Shown here: positions 23,553 to 32,099 of the stretch, in pieces
Position numbering within the stretch: position 1 is the first letter of the stretch
How the letters are laid out: the number at the start of each line of letters is the position of its first letter
Notes under the pieces: generated by a model
The model's database searches: none
What the model was told of the DNA's origin: nothing
The model's input: only the letters and a program-made list of their open reading frames with translations
Assembly: GCA_965227515.1 (NCBI GenBank)
Contig: CBDDFZ010000001.1
Span: forward strand, 3,188,797-3,252,796
Length of the DNA: 64,000 bases
Direction: 5' to 3'
Origin: Alphaproteobacteria bacterium
Lineage (GTDB): Bacteria; Pseudomonadota; Alphaproteobacteria; CALKHQ01
Program-made: the position numbers and the translations under genes

Positions 23553-23630
23553 GGTGGCTGTAGCTCAGCTGGTGAGAGCGCTGGTTTGTGGTACCAGAGG
23601 CCGTGGGTTCAAATCCCATCAGCCACCCCA
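23553..23630 (+). tRNA. tRNA-His (anticodon GTG) with encoded G-1 and CCA
   Basis: Cloverleaf: acceptor GTGGCTG/CAGCCAC, D arm GCTC/GAGC, anticodon stem CTGGT/ACCAG with loop TTGTGGT. T arm GTGGG-TTCAAAT-CCCAT. Discriminator C, 3' CCA, extra 5' G. Confidence 0.9.
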
Positions 23631-23685: not shown

Positions 23686-24072
23686 TCAGCGCACCTGCCA
23701 TTCACCGGCGGCGTCGCGGCAGGCGACGTGTTCCTGTCCTGTGGCGCTGCCTGCGGTGTGCTGATAACGCCGGCAATAGGCGCCATCGGCCGCCTGAAAG
23801 GTCGTGCGGACGATGATGGCGCCACGCGCGCCATTGGGCTCGGTCCACTCCAGCGTCTCGCCATCGGGCAGATTTTCCAAGGCGACCGGCAACGCGATCT
23901 CGCCAGCCGGTGTCGGAGCCGCTGTCTGGGAGCCTCCGAAAGAGGCAGAACGCGGGTTCGCACACGCCGCCGTGGCAAGGACAACGACAAGAGCCGTCAG
24001 CGCCAGCGCCCCACGCGCGCGCTTGCAATCCTGCGATGCGTTGCCAGGGATCACCTCACCGCCCCCTTCCAT
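23686..24072 (-). CDS. 17-kDa surface-antigen-like lipoprotein
   Basis: Lipobox-like LATAAC. The C-terminal LEWTEPNGARGAIIVRTTFQAADGAYCRRYQHTAGSATGQEHVACRDAAGEWQV resembles the rickettsial 17-kDa antigen C-terminal domain. The start is uncertain. Confidence 0.5.
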   Translation of the reverse strand: MEGGGEVIPGNASQDCKRARGALALTALVVVLATAACANPRSASFGGSQTAAPTPAGEIALPVALENLPDGETLEWTEPNGARGAIIVRTTFQAADGAYCRRYQHTAGSATGQEHVACRDAAGEWQVR

Positions 24073-25195
24073 CGCCCTCAGCCGGCCCCGGCGCCTCCAC
24101 GGCGGGCGGACCAACATCGCCATAGTTGATAATGAGGGTTTCGCTACTCGACGAATCGCTGCTCGACACGTTCGAGCCGACCCTGGACACGCTTTGCTGT
24201 GGCGCCCCGCTGCTCGGCGCAAGGTTCAGAAGATTGCCGGCCCCGCCGGTCGCATCCTCGATTGTATCGGTGATGCCGCCGGTCGTGTCTTCGATTGTAT
24301 CGGTCACCCCGCCGGTCGTGTCCTCAATCGTATCGGTGAGACCGCCGGTCGTGTCCTGAAGCGTCTCCGTGGCTCCGCCGGTTGCACCGTCGAGGGTTTC
24401 GTCCAGCGTATCGGTCACGTCCTCCAGGGCGCCCGCCGCCCCTTCGGTCACGGTGTTGAGCAACTCGTTGAGGGGCTGGATGCCGGATTGCGGCAGGATC
24501 TCGTTGGCGGCTTCGTCCAGCGGATCGGATATCGCGCTCGCTTCGTCCGGGCTGAGCGGCCGTAACTCGATGGTGTCCGGGCAAGGGTCGTCGACCGATA
24601 CCGTGAAACCGGCCGGCACATCGACCGCGGCGCAGCCTTCGATGCTGCGCACGTTGACAACACCCTCCGTCACGCTCACCGATGAGGCGTCATTGGTAAT
24701 CGCGAACTGGGTCCCCTTCACACCGGCGATCAGGAACTCGGCGAACACCTCGAACGAGGGCCCACGCCGTGGCGACACCAGGTAATAGACATTGCCGCCC
24801 TGCTGATTGATGCGCGTGTCGGCCCCGCCCGCAGCCGGTGCCGGCAAGGCAAGTGTCGTGTTCTCGCGTATGCGGATGATGTCGCCGCCGCGGGCCAGCA
24901 CGACCTCGCTGCCGGAACTCACGGTGATGGCCTGGTATGGGCCGATCAGGTCGCCCGGGGCCATGGGGCCTGGCTCGTTCCAGGGGTTGGAGCCTGCGGC
25001 AAGGTCGGCACTGCCGCGCACGTCGATCACGGTCCAGTACTCGCTCAGCGAAACGCCAGCGTCCTGGGCTGCGGCCTGTACGGCGGCGAGTACGCCAATC
25101 AGGGCAGCCGCGACAGCGGCCACGTGACGCTCCATCGAGCGCCACCGCATCGCCCCCAAGGCGCCATCTCGCATGCCGCGTTGCCGCCGTTCCAT
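24056..25195 (-). CDS. FecR-domain secreted protein with C-terminal TDTIEDTTGG decapeptide repeats
   Basis: Signal peptide MERHVAAVAAALIGVLAAVQAAAQDA and a FecR-like core (GSEVVLARGGDIIRI...GNVYYLVSP...GTQFAI...VSVTEGVVNV). The start is ambiguous (M at 25195, 25150 or 25135). Confidence 0.65.
   Translation of the reverse strand: MERRQRGMRDGALGAMRWRSMERHVAAVAAALIGVLAAVQAAAQDAGVSLSEYWTVIDVRGSADLAAGSNPWNEPGPMAPGDLIGPYQAITVSSGSEVVLARGGDIIRIRENTTLALPAPAAGGADTRINQQGGNVYYLVSPRRGPSFEVFAEFLIAGVKGTQFAITNDASSVSVTEGVVNVRSIEGCAAVDVPAGFTVSVDDPCPDTIELRPLSPDEASAISDPLDEAANEILPQSGIQPLNELLNTVTEGAAGALEDVTDTLDETLDGATGGATETLQDTTGGLTDTIEDTTGGVTDTIEDTTGGITDTIEDATGGAGNLLNLAPSSGAPQQSVSRVGSNVSSSDSSSSETLIINYGDVGPPAVEAPGPAEGDGRGR
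24240..24400. repeat. five 30-bp tandem repeats inside the FecR-like CDS
   Basis: Units CGCCGGTCGTGTC(T/C)TCGATTGTATCGGTCACCCC encode T-D-T-I-E-D-T-T-G-G on the minus strand. Confidence 0.75.
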
Positions 25196-25461: not shown

Positions 25462-28077
25462 ATGTCCGGTCCGCAGCGCGACACGTTTCGGTTCCTGCCG
25501 CGTCCCGTTTGGGGCGGCATCGGCATTGCGCTGGTGCTGGGCCTGACGTTGCTGGCCCACAGCGCGGGCCTGACGCGCGCGGTCGACAATGTCGTGCGCG
25601 ATGCGGGCTTTGCCGCGTTCCCGCAGCCGACATCGGGGCAACTGGCGATGGTCGTCATCGACCAGGGCAGCATCACCGCACTCGGCACGTGGCCCTGGCC
25701 GCGCGGTTATCATGCCGCGGTACTGTCGCGTTTGCAGGACGCCGGCGCCCGGCGGATCGGGTTCGACATTACCTTCTCGTCCCCTTCCCAGCCCGACGAG
25801 GACGACAGTTTCGCGCAGGCTCTGGAACGCGCCGGTGATGCGGTCGGGCTGCCGATGTTCGCCTCCGCGCCGCTCGATTTCGGCTCCGGGGGCATTGTCG
25901 TCAGCGCGCCGCTGGCCGGCTTCTCCGAGCACGCGGAGACCGTGGCGATCAACCTGCGGCAGGGGGCCGACGGATTCGTCAGGCAACTGCCCTATGCACT
26001 GGCGTATGACGGCGAGACATATCCGTTCATATCGACCTGGCTTGCCGGGCTGCCGGTTCCGGACGACGCCGGACGGACCTATCTCCTGGACCTTGCGCTC
26101 AATCCCGACGACATCCAGCGCCTGTCCTACTACGACGTCATGACCGGCGCATTCGACCCGGCCGCCATTGCCGGTCGCGACATCCTGATCGGCGCGACGG
26201 CCCTGGATGTGTCCGACGACAAGAATGTGCCGCTTTATGGCAGCCTGCCCGGCCTGGCCGTGATCGCGCTGGGTTACGAGGCCCTGGTGCAGGGACGCGC
26301 CCTGCAAGAAGCGTCGCCGGTCGTGACCTATCTGTCGGTCGTGGTGATGGCCTTCGGTGCGATCATGGCATTCTCGTCGATGCGGGCGCTGAATTGCGCA
26401 CTGTCGATGCTGGGTATCGCGATCGTCCTACTGGCGGCCTATCTCTTCTTCTATCTGGGCAGCGCCGTGGCGATCGAGGTGGCGCCGCCCGCGTTGGCGG
26501 CGTTGCTGGCGTTCGTACTGGTGATCGCGCTGCGCTATGCCGAGCAGCACTGGCGCTTGGCCGCGCAGAGCCGCGCGATCATCGACCGGCAGAACCTGTT
26601 CCAGACCATCTTCGACAATGTCGCCATGGGGCTGCTGACCGCGGACAAGAGCGGCCGGGTGATCAGTGTCAATCCTGCGATGCTGCGGATATTTCGCTGC
26701 GAGGAAGCTGATGTTCTGGGCCAGAACATCAGCACGTTCATTCAAAGCCCGGATCTGGCGTTGGATGGCGGCCAGGATACGGCCGCCGGCACCTGGCAGA
26801 CCGTCGCGGCGCGGCGCAAGGGCGGAGGCAACTTCAAGGCGGAAATCCTGGTGGTCGGCGCGCATACCCACGACCGCGAGATCAATGTGGTGTGGCTGCG
26901 CACGCAAGCGCCGCACGATGAATCGGAAGCTGCCGTTCAACAGTCGCACAAGCTGCAGTCCCTGGGCCTGCTGGCCTGGGAGGTGGCACGCAAGACGAAC
27001 GAGTACTTCGCGTCGCTGCAGGCCTATGCCGCGCGCGGACGCGAGGTGGCCGCCGCGGCCGACCCCGCCTCCCCGGTCCTCGCCGAGATCGCCAGGGTGG
27101 CTGACCGCGGCGCCGATCTTACCGAGCACCTGCTGAAGCTTTCCGACGTTGACGAGGTTGCCGGCCAGGCGACCGACGTCAGCGTTGTCGTCAACCAATT
27201 GGCTCCATTGCTGCGGCATGCTTTCGGCGACCGGTTTCAAGTGACGCTGACGCTGGCGGACGACACCAACGTCGTGGCCGTCAGCCCGGCGCAGCTCGAG
27301 ACGATCATCATCGCGATTTGCGTCAGTGCGCGCGACGCGATGCCGGATGGCGGGTTGATCGCCATCGAGACCGCGCGTTTCGACTACGTGGCCGAGCAGG
27401 ACTTCGTCCACGAGGGTCCTTTCTCCGTGATCTCGGTCACCAGTGCTGCCACCGGCCTGGACGGCATTCGACCCGCCCCGTCGGCGCCCAGTACGGTTGC
27501 GGCGCACTTGTCGGCCAGCGGCGCAAGCCTGGGCAGCATCTATCGGTTGGTGAACGAGATCGGGGGCCGGATCCAGATCGAGAGCGAACTCGGCGGAGAG
27601 ACCACGGTGCGTGTGTACCTGCCCGAGCGGCCTGCCGGCGACGCCCCGCCGCCCCTGGCCGATTTCGACATTTCCCGGCTGCCCAGCGGCTCGGAGAAAA
27701 TCCTGATGGTGGAAGACGATGCGGTGTCGCGCCGCCACAGCACCACCGTGCTGCGCTCGCTCGGCTACAACGTGGTGGAGGGCGGCAACGTCGACATGGC
27801 GCTCGGGCTGATCGACCAGGGGGTGGAGTTCGACTTGCTGGTTGCCTCGACGACATTGTCGGAGAGCAGGGATGGCCAGACACTGGCCGCCTCCGCCCAG
27901 CGGCGCTGGCCGTCGGCCAGGATCCTCTACACGGCACCCAGAGCCAAGGCCGGCATGGTCGCGAAGACGCTGTTCGACCGCAACGCGGCCGTCGTCGCCA
28001 AGCCCTATACGCCATCCGACATGGCAACGGCCGTCCGCGCCCTGCTCGATGGCCGGCCAGGGGCCAGCCGGATATAG
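25462..28077 (+). CDS. CHASE2-domain hybrid sensor histidine kinase/response regulator (CHASE2-TM-PAS-HK-REC)
   Basis: A periplasmic CHASE2-like N-domain is flanked by TM segments. PAS-like FQTIFDNVAMGLLTADKSGRVISVNPAM, an HATPase_c G-box region and a C-terminal receiver (KILMVEDD...DLLVASTTL...K) are present. The DHp/H-box is non-canonical. Confidence 0.7.
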   Translation: MSGPQRDTFRFLPRPVWGGIGIALVLGLTLLAHSAGLTRAVDNVVRDAGFAAFPQPTSGQLAMVVIDQGSITALGTWPWPRGYHAAVLSRLQDAGARRIGFDITFSSPSQPDEDDSFAQALERAGDAVGLPMFASAPLDFGSGGIVVSAPLAGFSEHAETVAINLRQGADGFVRQLPYALAYDGETYPFISTWLAGLPVPDDAGRTYLLDLALNPDDIQRLSYYDVMTGAFDPAAIAGRDILIGATALDVSDDKNVPLYGSLPGLAVIALGYEALVQGRALQEASPVVTYLSVVVMAFGAIMAFSSMRALNCALSMLGIAIVLLAAYLFFYLGSAVAIEVAPPALAALLAFVLVIALRYAEQHWRLAAQSRAIIDRQNLFQTIFDNVAMGLLTADKSGRVISVNPAMLRIFRCEEADVLGQNISTFIQSPDLALDGGQDTAAGTWQTVAARRKGGGNFKAEILVVGAHTHDREINVVWLRTQAPHDESEAAVQQSHKLQSLGLLAWEVARKTNEYFASLQAYAARGREVAAAADPASPVLAEIARVADRGADLTEHLLKLSDVDEVAGQATDVSVVVNQLAPLLRHAFGDRFQVTLTLADDTNVVAVSPAQLETIIIAICVSARDAMPDGGLIAIETARFDYVAEQDFVHEGPFSVISVTSAATGLDGIRPAPSAPSTVAAHLSASGASLGSIYRLVNEIGGRIQIESELGGETTVRVYLPERPAGDAPPPLADFDISRLPSGSEKILMVEDDAVSRRHSTTVLRSLGYNVVEGGNVDMALGLIDQGVEFDLLVASTTLSESRDGQTLAASAQRRWPSARILYTAPRAKAGMVAKTLFDRNAAVVAKPYTPSDMATAVRALLDGRPGASRI

Positions 28078-28423
28078 CCCCACAGCTTGCCTGCCGTGTG
28101 CCGCTGCGCTGTTCGGCGCATGCCCTATCGTTCAATTATTGCGAACACTTGAGTTCACAAGAAGTTGTGGATGGCTAATCGTGGCCGACTAGTGGAGAAT
28201 TTGTGAATTGTGACGGTCGTCACTCGCAAACTTCCCTAACGATTTCTAAATAAGCAAACCGGTTTACCTTAATGGTTAATTCATCGGCATGGTTAATGAT
28301 GAACCAATTGGGGGCAGCGGAAGAAAGGTTTCGCCAACACGCCGAGACGGGCACTGAATACTGAGTTTGATCGTTGTCCGGAACGGGCACGGCGCGAACC
28401 GTACAGCCATTGCGAGGTGTTCC

Positions 28424-29209
28424 ATGGCTTTGACATTCGACGACCGCCCACGCGCAGCACCTGAGTTCGCTGCGTTCGACCGACTGACCGACCCGCTGCA
28501 GACGCCTTGGCGTCCGACTATTGGCTTGCGCCAGATCGCCGAGGCGATGACGCGCAACCAGCACCTGCTGGTGCTGCGCTTCGCCACGTTCAACATGGCC
28601 GGTATCGCCCTGTTCGCGCTCGCCTGGAGCATGGGCTGGATCGGCACCGTTGTTGCCGGCGACGACACCATGATCACCGTCGGCATCGCGCTGGTGTTCG
28701 CGGTCGGCCTGATGTTCGCGGGCCGACTGGCCTGGCGGATCAGTGCCGAGAACAACGCTGCGATCGGCCACCGGCGCGAGCGCTCGGAATGGATCGACAG
28801 CTATCTGCGCGAGGTCTCGGCAAAGGACGCGGGCAGCCGCGCGATCGCGGGTTCGGCCCTGCGGCTGCGGCTGGCGAACCGCATCGGCTCGGTCAAGCAA
28901 ATCGCCAACAGCCTGGTGCTGCTGGGCCTGATCGGCACCGTCATCGGCTTCATCATCGCGTTGTCCGGCGTCTCGGCGGAGACCGCCGCCGACCCGCAGT
29001 CCATCGCGCCGATGGTGGGCGACTTGATCCGCGGCATGTCGGTGGCGCTCTACACAACGCTGGCCGGCGCCGTGTTCAACCTCTGGCTCATGGTCAACTT
29101 CCACATCCTGGCCGGCGGCAGCGCCCGGCTGGCGAGCCAGTTGATCGAGGCCGCCGAGCGCGAGGCCGGCAGCCGCGTGGCGCCCTACCGGGCGGCCGGA
29201 GCGCGCTGA
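28424..29209 (+). CDS. MotA/TolQ/ExbB proton-channel family protein
   Basis: Signature LVLLGLIGTVIGFIIAL...MVGDLIRGMSVALYTTLAGAVFNLWLMVNFHIL with 3 TM helices. GAGGTG SD. Confidence 0.8.
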   Translation: MALTFDDRPRAAPEFAAFDRLTDPLQTPWRPTIGLRQIAEAMTRNQHLLVLRFATFNMAGIALFALAWSMGWIGTVVAGDDTMITVGIALVFAVGLMFAGRLAWRISAENNAAIGHRRERSEWIDSYLREVSAKDAGSRAIAGSALRLRLANRIGSVKQIANSLVLLGLIGTVIGFIIALSGVSAETAADPQSIAPMVGDLIRGMSVALYTTLAGAVFNLWLMVNFHILAGGSARLASQLIEAAEREAGSRVAPYRAAGAR

Positions 29210-29210
29210 C

Positions 29211-29822
29211 ATGCTGTCGCTCAGCCAGTTCGACGACTCCAGCGAGGATGACGGCACGGTCTTTCGCGATGTCATCATGCTGGTGCTGTTCGGGTTCGTG
29301 ACCATCGTCGTGCTGCTGCTGCCGCACCTGAACCCACCGGTCGAGCCGGCCGAGGACATCCAGACGCCCGGCAACATCATGGTGGAAGTGCGCTGGCCCG
29401 ACGACGTCGACGCCGATGTCGACCTTTGGGTCGAGGCACCCGGCGATGTGCCGGTGGGTTATTCCAACAAGGACGGCCAGTACTTCAACCTGCTGCGCGA
29501 CGATCTAGGCCAGCGCAACGACCCGGCCGGCCTCAACTATGAGGTCGCGTTCAGCCGGGGGGTGCCCGAGGGCGAGTACACCGTCAACCTTCACCTCTAC
29601 CGCAAGCGCGGCGACATCGGCCCGGTCGAGGTGGTGGTCGTCGTCTCGATCCGCGACGACGAGACCGACAAGACGATCCACTTGCTGGACCGCACCGTTA
29701 CCCTGTCCAACCTGGGCGAGGAACTGACCGTCGTGCGCTTCAGCCTGGACGAGGACGGCGAGATGGTCGAGGGCAGCATGCACAATCTGCAGCGCAACCT
29801 GCGCACGTCGAGTGCGGGCTGA
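29211..29822 (+). CDS. ExbD/TolR-like membrane anchor with non-canonical periplasmic domain
   Basis: N-terminal DDSSEDDGTVFRDVIMLVLFGFVTIVVLL aligns with ExbD NLDDNGEMHDINVTPFIDVMLVLLIIFMV, including the conserved TM Asp. The C-terminal 150 aa are acidic and unlike ExbD/TolR. It starts 1 nt after the MotA-like stop. Confidence 0.6.
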   Translation: MLSLSQFDDSSEDDGTVFRDVIMLVLFGFVTIVVLLLPHLNPPVEPAEDIQTPGNIMVEVRWPDDVDADVDLWVEAPGDVPVGYSNKDGQYFNLLRDDLGQRNDPAGLNYEVAFSRGVPEGEYTVNLHLYRKRGDIGPVEVVVVVSIRDDETDKTIHLLDRTVTLSNLGEELTVVRFSLDEDGEMVEGSMHNLQRNLRTSSAG

Positions 29823-29840
29823 GGCGGGCCGGAGAAACCC

Positions 29841-30314
29841 ATGGAACCTGCGATCCCGATCTTCTTCGCCATTGTCGCCCTCGGCACCGCGCTGGCGACC
29901 CTGACCATTTGGTCGCGCCGCCGGCCGGCCGCGAAGGTCGCGGCGGTCGGTCTGACGGGCGCCCTGTTCATCTCAGGTTACTTCTCGCTAGTCGAGCTGT
30001 TGGGCCGGCCAAAGCCGATCGACCTGGAATGGGGGCAGCCGGACCTGGCCGACGCCACGGTGCTTGGCTCCGACATGCGCGAGGACGAGGCGATCTATCT
30101 GTGGCTGCGTTTCGACGGCGTGGACGTGCCGCGGGCCTATGTGCTGCCGTGGAGCCAGGATCTGGCGCAGCAGCTCCAGTCAGCCACGCGCCAAGCCGAG
30201 GAGGACGGCACCGAGGTGCGCATGCGCGAACCGTTGAACGGCGATCGTCCGGACGACGAGGAGCCGGTCTTCTATGCCCAGCCGCAATCGCCGCTGCCGC
30301 CTAAGCCCGCCTGA
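29841..30314 (+). CDS. hypothetical 2-TM membrane protein (third gene of MotA/ExbD-like operon)
   Basis: Two N-terminal TM helices, then an acidic soluble domain with a Pro-rich tail. The SD GGAGAAA is 18 nt after the upstream stop. Confidence 0.5.
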   Translation: MEPAIPIFFAIVALGTALATLTIWSRRRPAAKVAAVGLTGALFISGYFSLVELLGRPKPIDLEWGQPDLADATVLGSDMREDEAIYLWLRFDGVDVPRAYVLPWSQDLAQQLQSATRQAEEDGTEVRMREPLNGDRPDDEEPVFYAQPQSPLPPKPA

Positions 30315-30566
30315 TTGCGATTACCCGAAACGACGCCAACAACCGCAATATTGATCTGGAAATTCGTGGCTGGTTGAAACTATCTGGCAATTTGTCGGCG
30401 GGTATACCGACAAACACTTGATTTCCGGGCGTTTGCGGCACATCTTCCAGACACAGCATACGATTCATTTCGGTGCCGGCACATTGCGCGTGGTTCATGA
30501 AAACTTCATCACGTCGCGCGCGCCTGCCACTTCTCATACACACTCACACCTGTTGCAGGGGGATTG

Positions 30567-32099
<1,533 letters not shown>

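Follow-up and report, generated by a model that had tools for sequence, protein, structure and literature searches.

A conserved three-gene unit of the MotA/ExbB type with a predicted TerD-like periplasmic domain in bacteria and phages

Results

Three tightly coupled genes lie downstream of a low-GC spacer

The window, by which we mean the whole stretch of 64,000 nucleotides analysed here, holds three consecutive genes on the plus strand. Gene 1 (28424–29209) encodes a putative minimal channel ("A") subunit of the MotA/ExbB type with 261 aa. It is followed by gene 2 (29211–29822), which encodes a candidate "B"-type subunit of 203 aa with, in order, an acidic N-terminus, a single TM helix carrying Asp20, a linker of approximately 15 residues and a predicted TerD-like periplasmic beta-sandwich, and by gene 3 (29841–30314), which encodes an accessory 2-TM protein of 157 aa with a small acidic domain predicted to be periplasmic. 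The reading frame of gene 1 extends over 28367–29209; its ATG at 28424, with GAGG 6 nt upstream, gives the product of 261 aa, and an identical protein is called in public collections. An exact-sequence look-up of the gene 2 product of the window returned no contig on record. A single base separates the stop codon of gene 1 (TGA, 29207–29209) from the ATG of gene 2 at 29211, while gene 3 starts 18 nt past the gene 2 stop with GGAG ahead of it. An earlier note on this DNA had described a tightly coupled trio with a 1-nt first junction and a third gene 18 nt further on with its own SD, and all of these features are present in the sequence. No second copy of the trio was found within the 64-kb window.

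The trio is preceded by a spacer of 346 bp (28078–28423) with a GC content of 0.52–0.53, compared to 0.64–0.70 in the flanking DNA. The earlier note had called it a low-GC promoter region of about 340 bp. Its length and composition agree with that description, while a promoter or regulatory function can only be presumed from the GC contrast, since neither a sigma-70 consensus site nor an Rfam match was found in the operon and its surroundings. A consensus scan placed a terminator-like hairpin on the plus strand at 30391–30414, 77 nt past the gene 3 stop, with 8 pairs followed by a T-rich tail. It could mark the end of the operon, although it is weak evidence because 2 such sites were found in the region against 1.8 expected from shuffled sequence. 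Repeats in the region were trivial only. Further upstream, Pfam matches identify genes for a CHASE2-PAS-REC protein, a FecR-domain protein and a 17-kDa-antigen-like lipoprotein, the block directly after which the trio had been placed by the earlier note. Also as stated there, TonB/TolA/Pal/OmpA-like and flagellar genes are absent from the ORFs read between approximately 19.7 and 37 kb.

Gene 1 is a predicted four-helix channel subunit with a short cytoplasmic loop

A MotA/TolQ/ExbB signature had been noticed in gene 1, and profile search confirmed it: the protein matched Pfam MotA_ExbB (PF01618) above threshold (34.9 bits, cut-off 22.9; E = 1.5e-8) over residues 147–239, with the channel Gly/Thr motifs kept. 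Residues G168, G171, G175, A208, T212, G215 and W221 are found in at least 95% of 120 homologues and include the near-invariant G168xxG171(T172)xxG175 motif and T212; at position 172, T occurs in 100 of the homologues and N in 18. Judged by its sequence, gene 1 is a member of the MotA/ExbB family. Four TM helices are predicted, with a short cytoplasmic loop whose median length is 57 aa in genomes versus 31 aa in viral loci (minimum 11–13), a constant periplasmic loop of approximately 23 aa and a C-tail with a median of 20 aa. The best NCBIfam match was PomA, very weak and partial. The best PADLOC matches were ZorA models (E = 6e-6), also weak and partial and covering mostly the TM3–TM4 stretch.

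Gene 2 joins a conserved membrane aspartate to a predicted TerD-like sandwich

The predicted model of gene 2 (pLDDT 90.4) places the TM helix at residues 12–40. D20 is kept in 120 of 122 homologues and R19 in 109, so that the loss of the TM Asp, which the earlier note had named as evidence against its reading, is not what the alignment contains. The ExbD/TolR-like N-terminus described in that note stands only in part. The membrane Asp is conserved, whereas the likeness to ExbD is one of register only, given that hhalign paired D20 with ExbD D25 at a probability of 1.2%; the ExbD/TolR profile PF02472 gave no match (E up to 1). The window protein matched no Pfam family, plug-helix and OmpA-family profiles included, and no NCBIfam or PADLOC family, and in 60 family members we found no match to ExbD, TonB_C, TolA or OmpA profiles even at E up to 10. 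One family member had a faint match to MotB_plug (E = 0.035), and a profile search of the family against PDB sequences returned nothing meaningful.

The periplasmic part (residues 44–203) contains 32 D+E versus 14 K+R and has a pI of 4.3. It had been described as acidic and unrelated to the ExbD/TolR/MotB domains, in agreement with the profile searches and with the predicted model, in which it folds as a beta-sandwich of the TerD type and not as the alpha/beta fold of ExbD/TolR. We take the TerD-like fold of this domain as established at the level of the model. The TerD profile PF02342 matched neither the window protein nor the 60 family members. The link to TerD is structural only, since hhalign of the gene 2 family against the sequence of 2KXT (TerD) gave an insignificant probability of 0.85%, Smith-Waterman alignment to TerD reached a z of 2.4 with 29 of 1000 shuffles equalling the score, and matches to DUF2135 (PF09906) stayed below threshold. 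The latter occurred in 11 of the 60 family members (best E = 1.3e-4) and not in the window protein; the one inspected covered residues 115–143 and scored 17.1 bits, where 22 are needed. On visual comparison, gene 2 and TerD/DUF2135 share the collinear pattern N-x-x-V-x-x-x-W ... D-x-D ... (G/R)-D-(N/D). The gene 2 alignment has 35 columns with at least 95% identity and invariant acidic clusters at D69/D71 and R96-D97-D98...D104...N109-E111. The invariant residues D69, D71, D97, D98, D104, N109 and E111 are suggestive of Ca2+ binding.

Gene 3 is a predicted two-helix protein with a small acidic domain

The AlphaFold2 model of gene 3 (pLDDT 83.8) shows helices at residues 4–24 and 29–55, followed by a beta3-alpha-beta domain. 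The loop between the helices carries a mean of 2.75 K+R versus 0.08 D+E, which suggests that the loop is cytoplasmic and the C-terminal domain periplasmic. With its two predicted helices, a soluble part of pI 4.2 and 13 Pro, and the C-terminus ...PQSPLPPKPA, the protein is as the earlier note had described it (2-TM, acidic domain, Pro-rich tail). Conserved residues include P57, K58, W88, P97, W104, F144, P148 and K155, and the conserved C-terminal motif reads F-Y-A-x-P-x4-P-P-K. The family alignment contains neither a conserved His nor an SHLS motif, and the periplasmic part has only about 100 residues. Gene 3 matched no Pfam, NCBIfam or PADLOC family, and no fold match was obtained at E up to 1e-3.

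The trio is conserved as a unit in unrelated neighbourhoods

Relatives of gene 2 number 4,611 among 90%-identity clusters and 1,579 among 50%-identity clusters. The earlier note had proposed a check of neighbourhood conservation. Approximately 120 independent loci (82 genome and 36 viral/phage; GC 35% to 69%) were fetched. The trio was complete in 82 of 82 genome loci except at contig ends and in 36 of 36 viral/phage loci, with gene 3 after gene 2 in every locus. Gene calls show the genes of the trio overlapping one another by 14–26 nt and 4 nt. This joint recurrence and the thousands of gene 2 relatives indicate that the genes are not chance ORFs. The three proteins also co-diverge, as seen from their pairwise identities (rho 0.84–0.91; 5,995 locus pairs), and gene 2 has a mean identity of 53%, reaching 56% between a 65%-GC genome and a 35%-GC phage. 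A fourth conserved gene was not found across the 82 genome and 36 viral loci, and this includes the Pal/TonB-box partner that the earlier note had considered damaging to its interpretation. Together, these results demonstrate a strictly conserved, co-diverging trio without a conserved partner gene.

Using two narrow peptide patterns, we detected 344 matching stretches in 185,579 species representatives, a patchy distribution indicating that the trio is accessory and not core. Paralogous copies occur within one genome, and Azospirillum brasilense Sp7 carries the trio on chromid p1 (NZ_CP012915.1, at approximately 985.5–987.3 kb). The chromosomal neighbours (162 Pfam families among 120 proteins) are ordinary housekeeping genes, for example GlmS (7), Sel1 (6), dehydrogenases and transporters; TolB/Pal/CpoB and TonB-dependent receptors are not among the 25 commonest neighbour Pfam families. 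PADLOC gave 9 matches in the 120 immediate neighbours, all generic, and a location of the chromosomal copies in prophages or defence islands is unsupported by these neighbourhoods. One genome copy lies amid transposases and a DruA gene. A link to type 1 secretion (compare SiiAB) was rejected, as the ABC-exporter-type genes that 16 of 82 loci have within 8 kb vary in side, strand and distance, and so was a trypsin-like protease as partner, whose conservation does not extend beyond the 16-3-like phage group (11 loci).

Phages carry the trio

Carriage by phages, which is new relative to the earlier note, was seen in 34 IMG/VR contigs with a gene 2 relative and in 19 isolated rhizobiophages, including the temperate Rhizobium phage 16-3. 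In this Rhizobium/Sinorhizobium phage, genes 1, 2 and 3 are represented, in that order, by p038, p040 and p042. The T4-like rhizobiophages RHph_I1_18 and RHph_I1_9 carry diverged versions, and the trio is also present in low-GC metagenomic phages. On phage contigs it is flanked by genes for UvsX, DNA helicase, DNA polymerase, clamp loader and SbcCD, and thus sits within replication/recombination modules, in temperate as well as lytic phages. PHROGs v4 gave no match for the trio of the window or for two phage-contig trios (E up to 0.01).

Discussion

We propose that the products of the trio assemble in the inner membrane into a single self-contained complex of the MotA/ExbB plus MotB/ExbD ("5:2 motor") type, an architecture that we consider likely. 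Gene 1 would form the channel ring as a stripped-down 4-TM subunit almost without a cytoplasmic domain. Gene 2 would provide the central helix, whose buried Asp20 would take up and release protons against the Thr/Gly face of gene 1, and its TerD-like, probably Ca2+-binding sandwich would be set on the periplasmic mouth of the ring by the linker of approximately 15 residues. The TM hairpin and small periplasmic domain of gene 3 would dock on the complex as a coupled partner. We infer the 5:2 stoichiometry and the proton coupling from family membership; Ca2+ binding, gene 3 docking and the biological role are likewise put forward as proposals. The cytoplasmic parts appear dispensable, since the gene 1 loop shrinks to 11–13 residues in phage versions, and the periplasmic domains are too short for the outer membrane, which would place the work or gating at the periplasmic face of the inner membrane. 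The stator-unit reading of the earlier note, with partners other than the known ones, is supported by our results, including the points on which it might have failed, with proton coupling as a presumed property of the family.

Proton-driven 5:2 motors power flagella, Ton/Tol systems, gliding and type 9 secretion, and Zorya defence. The trio resembles ExbB-ExbD(-TonB) and TolQ-TolR(-TolA) in its PF01618 channel gene, its Thr/Gly motifs, its translationally coupled genes and their order, namely channel, single-TM protein with acidic N-terminus and membrane Asp, and third membrane protein. However, ExbB/TolQ have three TM helices whereas gene 1 has four, as in MotA, and a tiny cytoplasmic loop; ExbD/TolR have an alpha/beta periplasmic domain in place of the predicted TerD-like sandwich of gene 2, which has no ExbD profile match; and TonB/TolA have one TM helix with the SHLS His, a long spacer and a TonB_C/TolA domain, none of which is seen in the 2-TM gene 3. 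The trio further differs from Ton/Tol in having no linked outer-membrane partner genes and in being present in phages. With MotAB/PomAB it shares a four-TM A subunit and a single-TM B subunit with a critical Asp, but it lacks the large cytoplasmic torque domain, the OmpA-like peptidoglycan-binding domain and flagellar genes nearby, and the wall is out of reach of the short gene 2 linker. Zorya ZorAB is, like the trio, a MotAB-type complex outside motility with a mobile, patchy distribution, and ZorA was the best PADLOC match of gene 1. In contrast to the long cytoplasmic tail of ZorA, gene 1 (261 aa) has a C-tail of median 20 aa; the peptidoglycan-binding domain of ZorB is absent from gene 2, no ZorC/D/E-type effectors lie by the trio, and the trio is not enriched near defence genes. 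TerD is a soluble cytoplasmic protein of the ter operon, whereas in gene 2 the sandwich is fused to a TM helix of the stator type and has a predicted periplasmic location. Synteny and structure prediction have recently led to the proposal of TolQ-like motors whose "force transducers" contain vWA domains (Mol Biol Evol 2025, PMC12204202). They are comparable to the trio as uncharacterised 5:2-type genes with non-TonB/TolA periplasmic partners, but the partner domain is vWA instead of a TerD-like sandwich plus small beta-barrel, the transducers keep a TonB-like His-containing TM helix and, unlike the trio, they are not reported from phages.

The trio appears to be autonomous and mobile, occurring in unrelated contexts on chromosomes and chromids and in the replication/recombination modules of temperate and lytic phages. 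We suggest with low confidence that it acts as an exclusion or protection device that shields the inner membrane from the entry of phage DNA or from toxins that attack membranes. This role is tentative, and the explanation as a whole, a 5:2-type complex with an exclusion or protection role, has in our judgement slightly less than an even chance of being correct. The T4 proteins Imm and Sp are small inner-membrane or periplasm-facing exclusion proteins expressed early and encoded among phage replication genes. We compare them to the trio as having the same kind of role as we propose, but they are single proteins without a proton channel and have no sequence or fold relation to it. A published account (PMC8123226) implicates the ter operon, to which TerD belongs, in the inhibition of phages and in resistance to colicins. 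A defence role is weakened by the housekeeping neighbours, by PADLOC matches that are few (9 of 120) and generic throughout, by the absence of an effector, and by a gene 2 that, at 53% mean identity, is unusually conserved for an arms-race protein.

These same observations bear on the possibility that the machine serves upkeep, as a Tol-like proton-driven system for inner-membrane and periplasm homeostasis that would handle lipid, cell-wall precursors or divalent cations sensed by the TerD-like domain, and that phages would use as auxiliary genes to keep the envelope of the infected cell working until lysis. Chromosomal copies amid housekeeping genes and the few defence matches around them are in line with such a function, as are the paralogous copies in one genome, which recall multiple Ton/Exb sets, and the strong purifying selection on gene 2, which fits invariant ligand or partner binding. 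The patchy spread, by contrast, is that of an accessory and not a core function, the carriers are unrelated phage types and once a transposon-rich region, and envelope-biogenesis genes are never linked to the trio. We regard envelope upkeep as doubtful and exclusion of invaders as tentative.

A gated proton leak seems improbable. Here the channel of genes 1 and 2 would be closed by the TerD-like domain as a cap until a signal in the periplasm (loss of Ca2+ or an invader perturbing the membrane) removed the plug and the membrane potential collapsed. Infection would then be aborted, DNA entry that depends on the PMF blocked, or the timing of lysis altered. MotAB leaks protons and arrests growth once the MotB plug is removed, which counts for this mechanism; the complex would also have neither a cytoplasmic output domain nor reach to the wall or outer membrane, its short linker would set the sandwich above the channel mouth, and the faint MotB_plug match in one family member points the same way. 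However, a strictly conserved third protein with its own periplasmic domain is not obviously needed for a leak, the plug-helix profile does not match the window protein, and an early depolarising channel would harm the replication of a lytic phage itself.

We find it very improbable that a canonical ExbD/TonB or TolR/TolA pair, diverged or split, is hidden in genes 2 and 3 and that the trio is an ordinary extra Ton/Tol energiser for outer-membrane receptors with genes elsewhere, an outcome that the earlier note had set against its own reading. The gene order does mimic exbB-exbD-tonB (channel, single-TM Asp protein, Pro-tailed membrane protein), and gene 2 is ExbD-like in its acidic N-terminus and in the register of its Asp, but profile search and fold speak against such a pair: the 60 family members are free of ExbD, TonB_C, TolA and OmpA matches, the gene 2 domain is modelled as a beta-sandwich, two TM helices, a short periplasmic part and the lack of a conserved His set gene 3 apart, no TonB-dependent receptor, TolB or Pal is linked, and the trio is present in phages. 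Equally remote is the notion that the trio is the output or input device of the CHASE2 hybrid kinase/FecR/lipoprotein block, which adjoins it on the same strand across the 346-bp spacer, since among 82 other loci tblastn detected the kinase beside the trio once, the lipoprotein twice and FecR not at all, and the trio has its own low-GC upstream region; the signalling link raised in the earlier note is therefore unsupported and the block incidental.

Our searches of the literature on 5:2 motors, TerD with MotA/ExbB, DUF2135, phage 16-3 and stator-like proteins found no description of the trio, and genes 2 and 3 are not covered by any Pfam, NCBIfam, PADLOC or PHROGs family. Each newly characterised branch of these motors has revealed a new way to spend membrane energy outside the cytoplasm, and the trio represents a large uncatalogued branch with at least 1,579 clusters at 50% identity. 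It would bring a new periplasmic module, a TerD-like sandwich instead of a wall-binding or TonB-binding domain, and the near-minimal channel of its phage versions may show how little of an A subunit is needed. Azospirillum brasilense Sp7 and the classical Sinorhizobium phage 16-3 offer tractable hosts. In its boldest form, which we think rather unlikely, this reading would make the trio a hitherto unrecognised class of proton-driven rotary machine and the smallest known of the 5:2 type, lacking any cytoplasmic domain in its phage versions, with which phages and bacteria alike would keep out phage genomes or membrane-attacking toxins from the periplasmic side of the inner membrane; if true, it would be the first virus-encoded stator-type motor and would exclude superinfecting phages or defend the cell in a new way. 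Carriage by phages points to phage-host or phage-phage conflict or to survival of the infected cell, and either would be new biology.

Organisation of the locus

Three genes were found on the forward strand (+) at the coordinates reported in the earlier note, as confirmed from the ORFs of the window: gene 1 (28424-29209, 261 aa, TGA stop at 29207-29209), gene 2 (29211-29822, 203 aa), which starts one base past the gene 1 stop, and gene 3 (29841-30314, 157 aa), which lies 18 nt past the end of gene 2 with GGAG ahead of its start. Public annotation calls gene 1 with this 261-aa product, and the window holds a single copy of the trio. A 346-bp low-GC spacer precedes gene 1 on its 5' side (GC 0.52-0.53 vs 0.64-0.70 around it), in which neither a sigma-70 consensus site nor an Rfam match was found. 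Downstream there is a terminator-like hairpin (30391-30414, +), a kind of site not above chance in this region.

The trio is flanked upstream by genes for a CHASE2-PAS-REC protein, a FecR-domain protein and a 17-kDa-antigen-like lipoprotein, and downstream by a DEAD-box helicase gene and fatty-acid metabolism genes. No TonB, TolA, Pal, OmpA-like or flagellar gene was present in the ~17 kb of ORFs read, in agreement with what had been noted from the sequence alone. The CHASE2-PAS protein (25462-28077, +) has a receiver domain and a weak HATPase_c match (E 0.014), with no HisKA-type domain among its Pfam matches; adjacency of its gene to the trio is not kept in other genomes. In the FecR-domain protein gene (24056-25195, -), a 33-nt tandem repeat (24239-24386, ~4 copies, 82-85% match) encodes T-D-T-I-E-D-T-T-G-G-type peptide repeats in the C-terminal half, and in the helicase gene (30564-32099, +), 15-nt tandem repeats (31800-31859) encode E-S-R-(T/S)-T units within the protein's basic C-terminal tail. 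The only tRNA gene of the window, tRNA-His (GTG) (23554-23630, +), lies ~5 kb upstream of the trio, with no integrase or other island sign beside it in the ORFs read.

The three proteins

Gene 1 scored above threshold against Pfam MotA_ExbB (34.9 bits; threshold 22.9), while NCBIfam and PADLOC gave weak partial matches only, the best of them to PomA and ZorA models and far under the cut-offs. Gene 1 is a divergent branch of the MotA/ExbB family; as read from its sequence, four hydrophobic helices are arranged as in MotA. Across 120 homologues, G168-x-x-G171-T172-x-x-G175 and, in the last helix, T212/G215/W221 are near-invariant. In genomes the cytoplasmic loop has a median length of 57 residues, and in many phage versions it is down to 11-13; the length of the periplasmic loop is steady at ~23 residues.

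Gene 2 had no match in Pfam, NCBIfam, PADLOC or PHROGs. Its AlphaFold2 model (60-sequence alignment, pLDDT 90.4) consists of a helix at residues 12-40, a linker of ~15 residues and an eight-stranded beta-sandwich, and the periplasmic domain is TerD-fold. By sequence, gene 2 is at most marginally similar to TerD (hhalign probability 0.85%), and a collinear Smith-Waterman alignment gave z 2.4, its score being reached by 29/1000 shuffles. DUF2135 matches occurred in 11/60 family members (best E 1.3e-4), and the single one inspected fell under the gathering score. Asp20 in the transmembrane helix is kept in 120/122 homologues; hhalign aligned it to ExbD Asp25 without statistical support. Invariant acidic residues on the sandwich suggest Ca2+ binding.

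The model of gene 3 (pLDDT 83.8) shows two transmembrane helices and, after them, a small beta3-alpha-beta domain, against which a conserved C-terminal F-Y-A-x-P...P-P-K segment packs. Because the inter-helix loop is strongly positive, this domain should be periplasmic. Fold searches with gene 3 returned no convincing relative. The soluble parts of both partners are acidic (pI 4.3 for gene 2 and 4.2 for gene 3).

Conservation and genomic context

Relatives of gene 2 number 4,611 at 90%-identity clusters, every one unnamed or 'hypothetical', and 1,579 at 50%-identity clusters. Scanning a single genome from each species with two peptide patterns yielded 344 stretches encoding such relatives, by record title mostly from Alphaproteobacteria (Geminicoccaceae, Kiloniellales, Rhodospirillales, Azospirillum), with some in bins labelled Gammaproteobacteria, Nitrospiraceae or Phycisphaeraceae. 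At 82 genome loci, gene 2 is flanked by genes 1 and 3 wherever the contig permits, and the window's own neighbour genes adjoin the trio in just 0-5 of them. Gene calls on other contigs overlap by 14-26 nt (genes 1/2) and 4 nt (genes 2/3). Pairwise identities of the three proteins over 110 loci are strongly correlated (rho 0.84-0.91), gene 2 having the highest mean identity (53% vs 39% and 37% for the other two). Clustering of all ORFs recovered as conserved the three genes and their shadow ORFs, nothing else; among the 120 immediate neighbours, 162 Pfam families are represented, the commonest being GlmS (7) and Sel1 (6), and only 9 of these neighbours have a PADLOC match, generic in every case. 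These results show that gene 3 is obligatory and that the trio is inherited as one unit with no further conserved gene.

Some genomes have two copies. Two complete trios lie ~6 kb apart on one contig each in loci L001 (1-1535, 7268-9118) and L008 (10-1617, 7394-9067), two MAGs have copies on separate contigs (L030/L047 and L043/L079), and Azospirillum chromids carry the trio in two places each. ABC-exporter-type genes were found within 8 kb in 16/82 genome loci, on varying sides and strands (for example L033 4932-7001, L037 1682-5571 and L044 10567-12744), some with HlyD-type neighbours; this proximity possibly exceeds chance and recalls the SiiAB/type 1 secretion pairing, although the link is inconsistent. 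Locus L003 (591-1517, 1469-7082, 9689-11250) has a chromosomal trio amid IS66/IS21/rve transposase genes, adjoining a DruA (Druantia) gene with a caspase-like peptidase near, and is the sole defence-island-like setting encountered.

Carriage by phages

The same two patterns applied to IMG/VR gave 34 loci, each holding the complete trio; identity of gene 2 is as low as 36%, and GC spans 35% to 69%. Two low-GC contigs are clearly phage; there, the trio is bordered by a UvsX-like recombinase on one side and a DNA helicase on the other, or lies amid genes for DNA polymerase, clamp loader, SSB and SbcCD. A gene 2 homologue also occurs in 19 records of isolated rhizobiophages, annotated hypothetical throughout. 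In temperate phage 16-3, genes 1, 2 and 3 correspond to p038 (a minimal version of 138 aa, E 1e-6), p040 (41% identity) and p042 (E 1e-8), the cluster sitting between immX and attP; small ORFs p039 and p041 are inserted within it (L117 6678-6968, 7498-7683). In RHph_X2_25, an HNH endonuclease separates genes 2 and 3 (L118 6544-7086). Phage trios are broken up by selfish or small ORFs, yet retain all three genes. A trypsin-like serine protease with a signal peptide is encoded just upstream in 16-3 (p036, L117 5217-6116) and 10 related loci, throughout the 16-3-like group and not in other phages or genomes.

T4-like RHph_I1_18 and RHph_I1_9 carry a very diverged trio (147/198/146 aa) adjoining a late sigma factor and SbcCD, in which the transmembrane Asp and D-x-D / R-D-D-x-G motifs are recognisable by sequence. 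RHph_I1_18 also encodes, past a tRNA cluster and ~2 kb downstream of the trio, a protein with a von Willebrand factor A domain (L120 6332-7561); vWA proteins have lately been put forward as partners for other TolQ-like motors (PMC12204202).

Relation to known systems and biological role

The combined results show a MotA/ExbB-family subunit and a partner whose membrane Asp is conserved and whose periplasmic domain has the TerD fold, encoded together on chromosomes, chromids and phages. The trio would work like the Ton/Tol/Mot/Zorya class, family membership being demonstrable for gene 1 only. Gene 2 fails all ExbD/TolR, MotB and TerD profiles, its resemblance to these families being confined to single features (transmembrane Asp, fold); gene 3 lacks every TonB/TolA feature tested, and the tail, wall-binding domain and effectors that define Zorya are missing. 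The earlier interpretation as a stator-type unit with non-canonical partners survived the refutation tests set for it. Assembled as in other family members, five gene 1 subunits would surround two gene 2 helices, and protons would pass via Asp20. Energy would be spent at the inner membrane's periplasmic side, because the cytoplasmic parts are dispensable and both periplasmic domains are short-linkered, neither being able to span the periplasm.

The role of the trio is the least certain point, and we only tentatively favour exclusion or protection, since unrelated phages carry it within gene modules for replication/recombination, the cassette is autonomous with a patchy distribution, one copy lies amid transposases and a DruA gene, and PMC8123226 connects ter operons with the inhibition of phages and with resistance to colicins. 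The housekeeping neighbourhoods of the trio, and the fact that gene 2 evolves slowly, argue for a homeostatic envelope function borrowed by phages, an alternative of almost equal, low probability; that the trio is a gated proton leak appears improbable. The boldest reading, a minimal rotary motor encoded by viruses and serving exclusion, is rather unlikely.

Motor-diversity surveys (PMC12505986, PMC12204202) list other unexplored motor-partner combinations, this trio not among them, and our search of open-access papers and preprints found no description of it. The genetically tractable model bacterium Azospirillum brasilense Sp7 carries a complete trio on plasmid ABSP7_p1 (NZ_CP012915.1; L119 5382-7070), where the collection's plasmid table has no annotated feature. 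The trio is a further form of a known machine class, and its connection with phages is unexpected.
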